Positions 6,180-39,826 of a DNA stretch of 64,000 bases are shown here, in pieces. Both the position numbers and the translations under genes were made by a program. The stretch is from the NCBI GenBank assembly GCA_958417225.1, contig CATZCM010000003.1, positions 13,433 to 77,432 on the forward strand. Direction: 5' to 3'. The notes under the pieces are model-generated. The model worked only from the letters and a program-made list of their open reading frames with translations. It ran no database searches and was not told the DNA's origin. Position 1 is the stretch's first letter. Each line of letters starts with the position of its first letter. This stretch comes from an uncultured Eubacteriales bacterium. Its GTDB lineage: Bacteria > Bacillota > Clostridia > Oscillospirales > Acutalibacteraceae.

Positions 6180-7745
6180 TTATACGTCCTCCACCTTAAT
6201 TTTATGGGTTTTCAGCTTACTATCGTACGAAATCCCCACTGCTAACTTTTGTCCTGTATATTCATCCAACGCTCTCGCGTAACGCTTTTCTCGTATCTGC
6301 TTCAGTGCTTCCTCTGGAGTCGAATCTTTCTTTAACTCAATAATAAATGCTGGTTTTGATTTATTATTCGGGAAAAAGATAAAATCAGCAAATCCTATCC
6401 CTGCCGGCATTTCACGTACAACTTTGTACTGTGACCTTGCATTCAGGTACACAAGTGTAATAACACACGCAAGTGAATTTTCATCATTGTACTTAATTAT
6501 CGGAATATTTATATCATGTGCCTCTTGAATTAATCGTTCCATCGTTTTTGTATCTTTTTTTATTGTTGCTTCGAGCATCTCATTTGACTGTAAAACTAGT
6601 TTGGATATTTCTCCCATCTTGTGGCTACGCAACGCATAATCAAACTTTATTCGAAGTTCTTTATTGGGAATCCTGAGTTCCTCATCATAATAGCTCAAAA
6701 ATCCATAAACCGTCATCGCTGATAATATTTCATCTCTTGTATTCAAACTAATCTTTTCTGCACTGTAACCTTCAAGTAGGATATGTACTGGTATTCCAGA
6801 CACCATTCGCACTATATCATCTCGAACTGCTTCAATATTATTTTCAATATAGTAACTTATCTCATCCATTGGGCCTGTATTCGTCCAATAACTTTGGCAA
6901 TCTCCTTCATCAAGCGCATAATAAACAGACCTCGGATTGTATATCTCTAATCCACTGTAACTTTTATATCCATCGTACCATTCCTTGAGTTCATTCATCG
7001 TAATAACTTCTTGCTTCGAACACAATCTTTCTACCTCAGATTCAGTAAAACCAAAAAATGAATCAAATTTCTTATCATTCATCATATTGTATTCCCTAAA
7101 CATATTTAGCGCTGAACCAGACGAATACTTCGCTATTGGCAATACTCCAGTCATATACGCAAGTTCCACATATGGTTTATCTTTTAGCAAATCCTTCAAA
7201 AACTGCAGAAAACTTTCCCTCTCCGCCTCCGAAAAGAACTTATTGTTAAAAATGTAATCCCATTCGTCCAGAATAAAAATGAAACCTTCACGGGTTTCAC
7301 TGTAAACCTGTGTAAAAAGATCTGACAACGACCATAATGGATCAATCTCCAAATTTTCATAAACACTTTTTAAATCGTTAATAAGTAAGCTCACATATCG
7401 ATCAATGAATTCTTCGTACGTACAATTTATTTTCGGCATCTCACTAAAAGTTAAATAGATCACGTTATACTTATTCAAGTGTTCAAGATACGATGGATCA
7501 CTTGATACTTCAAGCTTATCAAATAAATTCTTAAAATTTGCGTTTTTTGAGTAGTAGCACGCAAGCATCATCGCATTGACAGTCTTTCCAAATCTTCTCG
7601 GACGAGTTATACATATATATCTGTCTTTTTTCCCAACAATGTTATTAATTTTACTTATCATTTCACTTTTGTCCACAAAATATCTTTCACGCGTCATTCG
7701 TTCAAATTCGTTGTCATTAAACAATCCATTCAAAATATGCCCCAT
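6180..7745 (-). CDS. Predicted AAA-ATPase with C-terminal PD-(D/E)XK nuclease domain (AAA-ATPase_like / PDDEXK_9 type)
   Basis: 521 aa. N-terminus ...YFVDKSEMISKIN...RYICITRPRRFGKTVNAMMLACYY is typical of that family. C-terminus ...GFADFIFFPN...AFIIELKKDS... fits a PD-(D/E)XK core. Confidence 0.75.
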   Translation of the reverse strand: MGHILNGLFNDNEFERMTRERYFVDKSEMISKINNIVGKKDRYICITRPRRFGKTVNAMMLACYYSKNANFKNLFDKLEVSSDPSYLEHLNKYNVIYLTFSEMPKINCTYEEFIDRYVSLLINDLKSVYENLEIDPLWSLSDLFTQVYSETREGFIFILDEWDYIFNNKFFSEAERESFLQFLKDLLKDKPYVELAYMTGVLPIAKYSSGSALNMFREYNMMNDKKFDSFFGFTESEVERLCSKQEVITMNELKEWYDGYKSYSGLEIYNPRSVYYALDEGDCQSYWTNTGPMDEISYYIENNIEAVRDDIVRMVSGIPVHILLEGYSAEKISLNTRDEILSAMTVYGFLSYYDEELRIPNKELRIKFDYALRSHKMGEISKLVLQSNEMLEATIKKDTKTMERLIQEAHDINIPIIKYNDENSLACVITLVYLNARSQYKVVREMPAGIGFADFIFFPNNKSKPAFIIELKKDSTPEEALKQIREKRYARALDEYTGQKLAVGISYDSKLKTHKIKVEDV

Positions 7746-34879: not shown

Positions 34880-34905
34880 TTTTATTTTCCTCACTCATAT
34901 ATCTA

Positions 34906-35561
34906 TTTATTGTTCTTTAAACACGTCTTCATACTGTCCGCAAATTTTATCCCATGTGTATTCTTCTGCCACACGCTTCTCTGCTCTCCAACCCATCTCT
35001 GCAATTTCATCTGCGCTCATTTGAACAGATAGCAAGGCCGCAATATTTGACCATCATCTGCCCAGAAATCTTCCAGTATTTCCGAATTGGTGCGGACCAC
35101 TTCGCTCTCATCCACTCATGTCCATCCGGATTCAAGTACACAGTACCGCCCAGTTTATGGATTTCTTTGTAGAAATGAGAGGCAAAGGGTCCGATGTGAC
35201 ATGTCATTATGTAGACAATCGGATGAGGAATATGATTTTTCTTAATATGCTCGCAGCACACTTTCAGTGCAGTAACATCATAATAAATTGCCTGTGCAGG
35301 CCCAATTTGAGGAACATCTATTTTGAAACAGTGGGCATTGTGGAGTTCAATTTCGTGGTCGTTGATCTTTGTCACGCCTCTAAACTCGTTCTCATCCATA
35401 CAGCCATCTCCATTGGCTTTACAGGCAACATGATATTTGATGTTCTCTTTATTCTGGTGATACTCCGTGAGCTTATAAACGAACGTTTCATAACCGCCAT
35501 ATGCTCCGAGGCTTTTTGCGCCCACAAGATATATATGCTGCACTTCTTTTTTTGAATTCAT
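34906..35561 (-). pseudogene. DUF1972/GT4 rhamnosyltransferase-like glycosyltransferase with a large internal deletion
   Basis: N-terminus MNSKKEVQHIYLVGAKSLGAYGGYETFVYKL...GTVYLNPDGHEWMRAKW...MMVKY is the DUF1972 half. The ORF stops at 35007. In another frame it is followed by only the last ~35 residues of a GT4 domain (..SADEIAEMGWRAEKRVAEEYTWDKICGQYEDVFKEQ*). From memory, homologs are roughly twice this length. Confidence 0.7.
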
Positions 35562-35885
35562 TCCTCTATTCCATCCTCACTACTCATGTTTTCTATTATC
35601 TCAATGCCATAAATCAGACCTCATTCCAGTTTCCAGCAACTTTTTATCCTCAGATTTTAATGCCTATTATCACTGCAGCACCGACAAGATACACATGCTG
35701 CACTTCTTTTTTTGAATCCATTCCTCTATTCAATCCTCATTCTTCGTGTTTTGTTTTATCTCATTACCGTAAACCAGACCTCAATCATAGTTCCAGCAGA
35801 TTTTATCCCCTAAATTTTCGTGTCTATTATCACTGCGGCTCCCACCAAAAATACGTGTTGCACTTCGTTTTACTGCCACATTTTT
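35517..35885 (-). repeat. Tandem ~157-160-bp repeat (2 full copies plus 1 partial), each carrying the RBS/5' end of the DUF1972 glycosyltransferase gene
   Basis: Copies start at 35517, 35674 and 35834 (tgcgcccacaagatatatatgctgcacttc / tgcagcaccgacaagatacacatgctgcacttc / tgcggctcccaccaaaaatacgtgttgcacttc). On the minus strand they encode MNSKKEVQHIYLVGA.., MDSKKEVQHVYLVGAAVIIGIKI*, and a degraded ..NEVQHVFLVGAAVIIDTKI*. Confidence 0.85.
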
Positions 35886-36491
35886 CTACCTCTGTATTCT
35901 TGCATCCTTTAGTCCCAGCCATTTCTGATCCTTATCGCTCAAACTTAATGGCGTCCCATCTTCCAAAAAGTAACCTTCAACACTTGCGTTACCCTTATAT
36001 TCACCTTTAAGTTCCGGCCACTCTACACCAATAATAGGATCATTCCAAGCTAGACCACTTTCATCACCGGGGTGATAAAAGTCTGTACACTTATAACAAA
36101 ACTCTGCAACATCGGACAAAACCAAGAACCCATGAGCAAAACCCTCTGGGATATAAAACTGTTTGTGATTTTCTTCAGACAGTTCAACCCCAAACCACTC
36201 ACCATAAGTTTTACTACTTTGCCTAAGATCAACGGCCACATCAAAAACACAACCTTTAATCACTCGAACCAATTTACCCTGTGGAAATTGTTTTTGAAAA
36301 TGCAATCCACGAAGCACACCTTTTGAGCTCATACTCTGATTATCCTGCACAAACACCATATCAAGACCAGCTTCGTGCATATCATTTTGGTTATACGTCT
36401 CAATAAAGTACCCACGATTATCATGATGGACAGTTGGTTCGATCACACAAAGCCCATCAATAGGGCATCTAGTTACTTTAATCTGTCCCAT
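35886..36491 (-). CDS. rfbC: dTDP-4-dehydrorhamnose 3,5-epimerase
   Basis: ..DNRGYFIETYN...GVLRGLHFQ....QGKLVRV..G.VFDVAVDLR..S.TYG.W... Confidence 0.9.
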   Translation of the reverse strand: MGQIKVTRCPIDGLCVIEPTVHHDNRGYFIETYNQNDMHEAGLDMVFVQDNQSMSSKGVLRGLHFQKQFPQGKLVRVIKGCVFDVAVDLRQSSKTYGEWFGVELSEENHKQFYIPEGFAHGFLVLSDVAEFCYKCTDFYHPGDESGLAWNDPIIGVEWPELKGEYKGNASVEGYFLEDGTPLSLSDKDQKWLGLKDARIQR

Positions 36492-39375: not shown

Positions 39376-39405
39376 TTTATAAAATCATCTTTATAACACA
39401 ATCAA
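39376..39405 (-). promoter_or_regulatory. Weak/moderate promoter candidate directly upstream of rfbA
   Basis: Minus strand TTGATT (39405-39400), 18 nt, TATAAA (39381-39376). The -35 overlaps the left inverted repeat. Confidence 0.35.
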
Positions 39406-39430
39406 GTCGCAAATCATAATCTTTTGCGAC
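39404..39430. repeat. Left copy of a perfect 27-nt inverted repeat (itself a hairpin, 8-10 bp arms)
   Basis: aagtcgcaaatcataatcttttgcgac is the exact reverse complement of 39800-39826. The arms GTCGCAAA/TTTGCGAC are palindromic, but the 9-nt centre (tcataatct vs agattatga) shows the two copies are inverted, not direct. Confidence 0.9.
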
Positions 39431-39477
39431 TTATGGTTTTAACTTCGCATACAGTGTGGGGTTGGATAATTTTCTTG

Positions 39478-39517
39478 CGAAAAATCTGACGGCAAATGCT
39501 ATAAAATTGCCGTCAGA
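39478..39517 (-). terminator. Rho-independent terminator (minus strand) inside the IR-flanked segment
   Basis: 11-bp perfect stem TCTGACGGCAA / TTGCCGTCAGA (39485-39495 / 39507-39517), followed on the minus strand by TTTTTCGC. Confidence 0.65.
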
Positions 39518-39759
39518 AAATTCTGGAAATTAAAATTGAGTTATGAACGTTCAAACATAAAAAGAATGCGTCCTTGAGCCAAAAACACAGATTTTTTACA
39601 TAAAACACATTAATTTGAAAAGTGATCAAAAAAATTAACATAAATCTTTTCAAAAAGAGTCGATAAAACTCCTTGTAAATTTCATTTTGATTGTGATACG
39701 ATGCTGTGATATGTGATTTTAACTATTGTGCCGAAAAAAAACTTTTTTTTGTATTTTAC

Positions 39760-39788
39760 TTGACTTATCCTTTTTATGAATATATAAT
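39760..39788 (+). promoter_or_regulatory. Near-consensus sigma-A promoter pointing rightwards (away from rfbA)
   Basis: TTGACT (39760-39765), 17-nt spacer, TATAAT (39783-39788). The predicted start, about 39795, is only a few nt before the right inverted repeat. Confidence 0.7.
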
Positions 39789-39799
39789 ATTAATTGTGT

Positions 39800-39826
39800 G
39801 TCGCAAAAGATTATGATTTGCGACTT
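39800..39826. repeat. Right copy of the 27-nt inverted repeat
   Basis: gtcgcaaaagattatgatttgcgactt is the reverse complement of 39404-39430. Confidence 0.9.

Follow-up and report, generated by a model that had tools for sequence, protein, structure and literature searches.

The stretch of DNA analysed here (the window) is 64,000 nucleotides long and comes from a 61-contig draft genome of an uncultured Eubacteriales bacterium of the Acutalibacteraceae; related loci are referred to by L numbers. The locus lies on the minus strand and begins with a conserved rfbA-B-D-C block (rfbA 39375-38422, rfbB 38417-37398, rfbD 37386-36478, rfbC 36491-35886), the last gene of which, rfbC (35886..36491), matches dTDP-4-dehydrorhamnose 3,5-epimerase (Pfam PF00908, E 8.7e-72). 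Downstream there is an ORF for a DUF1972 glycosyltransferase (GT; 35561-35007), followed by genes for an epimerase and a UDP-glucose dehydrogenase. The region between rfbC and the GT gene is occupied by a tandem repeat, also on the minus strand. TRF reported one array (35521-35871, period 160, 2.2 copies, 80% matches, score 446), a pairwise repeat search found 35518-35677 and 35678-35837 to be 79% identical, and a profile of the unit matched both window copies with E about 1e-46 to 1e-48. Overall the repeat has a period of 160 bp and is present in 2.2-2.3 copies with about 80% identity, and the three methods agree with an earlier sequence-only reading in which a unit of ~157-160 bp was said to be present 2.3 times. 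A 169-codon open frame runs antisense across the whole array and the end of rfbC (35501-36010, plus strand) and has been called as a protein by gene callers (L015, L016; cluster P0001). This frame is very likely spurious because it has no Pfam domain and its relatives are solely array-derived.

Direct reading of the sequence confirmed that the unit holds a ribosome-binding site (RBS) and the first ~15 codons of the DUF1972 glycosyltransferase, as had been proposed. Each unit is made up of a 'head', the first 15 codons (45 nt) of the GT gene, and a 115-nt spacer, and the array contains three heads and two spacers, all read here along the minus strand. The rfbC stop codon (35888-35886, by direct reading) is followed after 4 nt by the start of head0 (35837..35881), and the Shine-Dalgarno-like stretch before head0 comes from the final codons of rfbC, ATA CAG AGG TAG. 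Head0 reads ATG TGG CAG TAA AAC GAA GTG CAA CAC GTA TTT TTG GTG GGA GCC, which translates as MWQ, a stop at codon 4 and then NEVQHVFLVGA, and is a decayed 15-codon GT start of the class A described below. Spacer1 (35722..35836) consists of part 1 (~72 nt) and part 2 (~43 nt), the latter ending in the RBS region GAGGATTGAATAGAGGA. Head1 (35677..35721), read directly, is an intact 15-codon class-B head, MDSKKEVQHVYLVGA, whose RBS is that of the live gene, and if it is read on into spacer2 a stub micro-ORF of 23 codons plus a stop results (MDSKKEVQHVYLVGAAVIIGIKI, 35650..35721). Spacer2 (35562..35676) provides the 5' untranslated region and RBS of the live GT, and head2 (35517-35561; MNSKKEVQHIYLVGA, by direct reading) is the real GT start. 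Both spacers are 115 nt long, start with GCAGTGATAATAG and end with the ribosome-binding stretch GAATAGAGGA, and the two head-to-spacer joints in the window fall at the identical nucleotide. Head1 and head2 differ at 6 of 45 nt, four of these being third codon positions. In both head0 and head1 the first 15 codons of a GT allele pass into non-GT sequence, from which no GT can be encoded.

An identical rfbC protein was found on 21 metagenome contigs, 10 of the 21 being listed for comparison. Comparison of the junction with related strains, which the sequence-only reading had put forward as a check, showed the whole array without any difference in nine contigs that were obtained from different samples with different assemblers (SPAdes, MEGAHIT, Logan, scaffolds), over a region running from rfbC as far as nt 200 of the GT. 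The array of L015 carries one substitution, and that of L016 shows no difference up to the point within unit 2 at which the contig stops. Within this species the array is fixed. An alternative would be that the assembler expanded a single unit in error. This is hardly credible, since the units differ at about 20% of positions, so that short reads resolve them, and since the same 2.3-copy array was assembled independently from different samples by different assemblers. The repeat is real and is no assembly artefact.

The GT of the window is a truncated protein of 184 aa (35007..35561, minus strand; Pfam DUF1972, E 7.6e-65) that covers the DUF1972 N-terminal domain only, the catalytic C-terminal half being absent. 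Collinearity with the intact allele extends as far as 35025; the gene keeps residues 1-178 followed by an out-of-frame tail, and when set against the intact 412-aa allele of L008 it is missing 584 nt, with a shift of frame. The earlier statement that only the copy at 35561 continues into a gene, and that this gene is itself internally deleted, is therefore borne out. The out-of-frame 3' tail of the GT (MSADEIAEMGW...YTWDKICGQYEDVFKEQ and a stop; 34902..35023, minus strand) is 86.9% identical to the L008 tail (query 7469-7590 against L008 8050-8170) and it is here that the 584-nt gap ends and the window-type cassette begins. The intact L008 allele passes the NCBIfam model NF046071, 'beta 1-4 rhamnosyltransferase Cps2T', with 559.5 bits over residues 8-408 (the equivalog cut-off being 500 bits), and carries the GGTNPSLIE motif that has been described for WchF-like enzymes (PMC6802508). 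These matches indicate that the gene from which the heads derive is probably a Cps2T/WchF-type beta-1,4-rhamnosyltransferase; a sequence search found no solved structures for it. WchF/Cps2T transfers rhamnose from dTDP-rhamnose onto a lipid-linked first sugar (Glc-PP-undecaprenol), the committed step of Wzx/Wzy capsule synthesis (PMC6802508), and this accounts for the GT travelling with rfbC. The N-terminal half, DUF1972, has been assigned to acceptor binding (PMC6802508). As this is the only half kept in the window, the window copy is to all appearances dead.

Two types of cassette follow the array within the species. In the window type (window, L007, L012, L014) the truncated GT is followed by epimerase, dehydrogenase and DUF4422 genes, while in the L008 type (L008-L011, L013, L015) a 412-aa GT leads into another cassette, one with a Wzy-like gene. 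Between rfbA and window position 35025, a point 537 nt inside the GT, the two types are collinear at 99.7%. Beyond this point homology stops, although the final ~120 nt of the GT match again at 87%, so that the 584-nt 'internal deletion' sits at the conserved/variable boundary within the GT. Since the homology between the two types ends at 35025 and both share the array, the present cassette boundary lies inside the GT, 537 nt in, and not at the array as the sequence-only reading had it. The array adjoins the conserved rfb block and, for the same reasons, would mark an older boundary and not the present one. Three states of the GT can be seen within the species, namely intact (L008-L011, L013), interrupted by a nonsense CAG>TAG change at codon 8 (L015, ~1545-1570) and carrying the 584-nt gap (window, L007, L012, L014). 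The GT has been lost repeatedly within one species.

Homologues of the GT that are 83-95% identical at the amino acid level occur in Faecalibacterium, Blautia, Gemmiger, Oliverpabstia, Faecalicoccus and many Lachnospiraceae and Oscillospiraceae MAGs (one genome per species). Such identity across distant gut families marks the GT as horizontally mobile. Against L034, an Oscillospiraceae MAG, the GT is 95% identical in amino acid sequence and rfbC only 72%, so that the GT and the scar (as the array is interpreted below) have moved independently of rfbC. Elsewhere a single contig (G162:C4:232487-236130; L025, L027) carries a homologous GT split in two, with residues 7-219 and 225-408 separated by about 2.5 kb, which suggests an insertion into the gene.

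GT starts at this junction fall into classes. Class-A alleles begin immediately after rfbC and their heads end NEVQHVFLVGA (L017, L038, L039, L042, L049, L052, L058, L060); many genomes have no more than a few tens of nt between the two genes, and such close succession is the usual arrangement among gut Firmicutes. Class-B alleles are preceded by a non-coding leader of their own, which ends in GTGAGGATGGAATAGAGGA, and have the head MNSKKEVQHVYLVGA; to this class belong head1, head2 and the final ~25-45 nt of the spacers. The head MQ[FL]NDKVQH.YLVGA defines a third class, seen in L034 and L069. All three classes occur before the joint: A in head0, B in head1 and L068 and the third in L034 and L069. 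The end of rfbC together with head0 aligns at 77-84% with live rfbC-GT junctions (L036, L038, L039, L040, L043, L048, L055, L060), and the head0 core is identical to the live L036 head at 30 of 33 nt. This alignment and this core match identify head0 as the start of an older, rfbC-abutting class-A GT allele. The undisturbed ancestral layout, in which rfbC abuts a GT start and the two are homologous to rfbC end plus head0, can be seen in relatives. It had been noted that divergence increases toward rfbC; this is correct, and its cause is that head0 belongs to another allele class and is not simply older.

Relics of other kinds were also observed at this junction. In L036 (2390-2500) an rfbC minigene lies directly before the GT, its first 6 codons joined in frame to its last ~22 (MGQIKV, then DGTALNLSDKDQKWLGLKDTFKF and a stop), and L040, L043 and L055 have rfbC tail relics only. 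In L033 a 102-aa stump of a second glycosyltransferase (MNERSKIAMFGHKRWSREGGVEIVV...; 1953-2261) lies between a priming transferase gene and the class-B leader and is preceded by a spacer homologue. Relics are thus common at the rfbC-GT junction (L036, L040, L043, L055 and, as a truncated GT stub, L033).

The joint between head and spacer lies after head codon 15, the spacer side reading GCAGT[G/A]ATAATAG, and it falls at the same nucleotide in both window copies, in L034, in L068 and in L069/L070. L034 has the order head, spacer, head, GT. L068 and the near-identical pair L069/L070 have the class-B leader, a head and the first ~70 nt of the spacer, followed by unrelated DNA; these contigs, which give the joint other right-hand neighbours, are short (0.6-1.2 kb) and of low coverage. 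They were found by protein searches using antisense ORFs. L102-L106, which came from an antisense-ORF search as candidate carriers of the joint, were rejected as they share only the class-B leader and no head-spacer block. Among 401 genomes of the family the joint pattern was present in one, the window's own, and the block of head plus spacer part 1 was likewise present only in the window's own genome among 401 genomes of the order sample. A metagenome pattern scan for the joint gave no contig beyond one already known, and 26 pattern matches in viral contigs, none of them homologous by profile, were chance matches. The joint is rare.

Part 1 of spacer2 matches L068 at 62/72 positions (86%) and spacer1 at 53/72, with bootstrap support of 0.98, part 2 of spacer2 is 88% identical to L034, and its last ~22 nt (GTGAGGATGGAATAGAGGA) are common to many class-B alleles. 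The closest copy to spacer1 is the L034 spacer (part 1 79%, part 2 84%), as against 74% and 81% for spacer2. Each spacer of the window thus has its closest relative in another genome and not in the other spacer, and the two full units have had separate histories. DNA homologous to the entire spacer occurs in Oliverpabstia, where it is non-coding and lies downstream of a priming-transferase gene (L033 1859-1988, E 8.6e-7); the spacer is therefore leader-type DNA and no gene fragment. The idea that the spacer is a fused 3' tail of the GT was set aside because of this homology; the resemblance in spacer1 (GGGATAAAATCTGCTGGAACTATGA against GGGATAAAATTTGCGGACAGTATGA) was equalled by 11 of 1000 shuffles and that in spacer2 by 804-949 of 1000.

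The class-B GT alleles are themselves preceded by a conserved non-coding leader of about 230-310 nt (L033 2210-2440; L068-L070; L102-L106) that contains a terminator-like hairpin (GCCTACGGTGGATTGCC...CCGCCGTAGG) and a T run. This leader is 97% identical between the Oliverpabstia locus L033 and L102-L105, where it lies beside the gene for a BrnT toxin. A gene for a large serine recombinase is also present in L102, and in L103 the other side of the leader is occupied by the pgk gene. No Rfam match was found for the leader in L033, L068, L069 or L070. It may be the leader of a mobile element or a regulatory RNA.

A role for the array in expression would require that the stubs act as upstream ORFs, as standby ribosome sites or as extra promoters that tune the GT and the cassette behind it. 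The sequence-only reading had included a promoter-proximal region in the unit and had suggested that the duplicated regions form a promoter array. However, a consensus scan found no sigma-70-like site on either strand within 35517-35885, and so no -35/-10 pair in each unit, and the operon promoter is an invertible segment upstream of rfbA. This 423-bp segment (39404-39826) was observed to be inverted in L008, L012 and L016 and to have the window's orientation in L007 and L014. No terminator-like site was found in the array, there was no Rfam match at E <= 1 in the window and six related loci, and the spacers and the whole array were predicted to fold no more stably than shuffles (z +2.0, -0.63, -0.66, 0.01); neither a known family nor a stable fold of the kind expected of a structured cis-regulatory RNA was found. 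On the other side of the argument, head1 has the RBS of the live gene, the mRNA strand is purine-rich with several GGAG/GAGG motifs, an equivalent stub reading frame of 23-25 codons is uninterrupted in L034, L068 and L069/L070, and thus in four of the five copies including the window and in different lineages, and GCAGTGATAATAG is unchanged in four of the five distinct copies. Spacer2 and the L034 spacer are about 83% identical, as compared with 74% at GT third positions and 61% at 4-fold sites. The spacer is therefore conserved at least as much as silent sites, and this could reflect constraint, although more recent exchange of the spacer explains the figures as well as constraint would. As an RBS accompanies the stubs, translation starting at head1 may yield a peptide of 23 aa, for which no dedicated role would be expected. 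Head0, however, is interrupted by a stop at codon 4, the 88 nt that separate the end of the stub ORF from the GT start leave no translational coupling, the scar is present in one of 401 family genomes while most GT alleles work without it, and the GT downstream is dead in this strain. A functional leader is accordingly a doubtful proposition. Much the same standing is given to the more speculative idea that the 15-codon head and the first ~70 nt of the spacer form a conserved portable module and no debris, either as a short homology handle, possibly an integration core, by which polysaccharide cassettes pass between distant families of gut Firmicutes, perhaps on conjugative elements, or as the code for a 23-25-residue peptide (M..VQHVYLVGAAVIIGTKIWG) that has its own role.

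The explanation that we favour, with a probability of roughly 0.68, is that recombination left these 369 bp behind as a scar without function, which was stacked through the 45-bp head. The same array stands before two different cassettes, head0 is of class A and tied to rfbC, and the joint is also seen in L034, L068 and L069/L070; what counts against a scar is that the spacer does not decay faster than silent sites and that GCAGTGATAATAG and the stub ORF are kept in four of five copies. Because all joints fall at the same nucleotide, we infer a single founding joint that was later copied or stacked by homologous recombination. The joint would have arisen once through an illegitimate event, in which either leader and head, 160 bp together, were duplicated or DNA was deleted, and would then have spread with the horizontally mobile GT. 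Imported locus DNA may have paired with the resident locus through the 45-bp head in the wrong register, thereby adding a unit. The head would have been the last patch of homology whenever foreign locus DNA recombined, and if donor sequence was taken up as far as the end of homology each head would have kept its own allele class up to the joint. With five distinct joint copies there are too few to recover the order of these events. The proposal that successive recombination events each left the previous 5' end behind is in this respect half right, in that there are relics at the rfb/GT junction, but the joints at one nucleotide are not independent breaks. A simpler history would be tandem duplication in situ, in which a 160-bp segment was duplicated twice by slippage or unequal crossing-over with the oldest copy left next to rfbC. 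The head-to-tail units, the 160-bp period and the joints at the same nucleotide would all follow from this, one unequal crossover between heads being enough, but head0 is of a different allele class, with its 30/33 match to L036, and is continuous with the rfbC end. In a tandem repeat made in situ, moreover, the copies would be each other's closest relatives, whereas here spacer2 is closer to L068 than to spacer1 (bootstrap 0.98), and the joint is present in other lineages and contexts; in-situ duplication is thus unlikely, if somewhat less so than a functional leader. A footprint of an integrating element, with the 45-bp head as the integration core or the site of a Campbell-type single crossover and the spacer as the remnant of an insert, would fit the head-X-head layout and the presence of head plus part 1 with a constant left neighbour and three different right neighbours. 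The 97% identity of the class-B leader to DNA adjoining the BrnT gene in L102-L105, and the large serine recombinase gene of L102, point in the same direction. Yet no recombinase gene adjoins the array in the window, L102-L106 share the leader without the head-spacer block, the viral matches were all chance, and the contigs with other right neighbours are about 1 kb long and of low coverage. This leaves integration a very improbable origin.

Read as a recombination scar, the array is ordinary in kind and neat as evolutionary evidence, and it calls for no new mechanism. It is a record of the rebuilding of a surface-sugar locus in an uncultured human-gut bacterium, in which an rfbC-abutting allele appears to have been displaced by a horizontally spreading allele with its own leader, and in which 45 bp of a gene start seem to have served repeatedly as a recombination patch. 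A rhamnosyltransferase that is nearly identical across distant gut families, and that is repeatedly inactivated within one species, provides background for the variation of surface glycans in the gut.

In capsule and O-antigen loci, such as pneumococcal cps and the enterobacterial O-antigen clusters, cassettes are exchanged by homologous recombination in conserved flanking genes, the genes of the cassette are often inactivated, and gene remnants and pseudogene fragments are found at the junctions. The window appears to resemble them in these respects, its fragments of glycosyltransferase and sugar-pathway genes lying next to a conserved flank at what would be an older junction with the variable cassette. 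It differs in that its relics form a regular tandem stack with one joint common to distant lineages of gut Firmicutes, and in that its current cassette boundary is 537 nt into the GT and not at the relics. A likeness to upstream ORFs and leader peptides can also be drawn, as the GT's 5' leader contains a short ORF that has an RBS of its own, but no attenuator hairpin or terminator follows the stub ORF, it is not at a coupling distance from the GT start, and the ORF is derived from the GT's own start. With regard to Streptococcus pneumoniae Cps2T (WchF) and its relative GacB (PMC6802508), the window copy differs in being a 184-aa stump and the gut alleles in being known from sequence alone. The intact allele is like Cps2T in passing the Cps2T model, in its DUF1972 domain and GGTNPSLIE motif, and in adjoining dTDP-rhamnose genes and, in the L008-type cassette, a Wzy-like gene.
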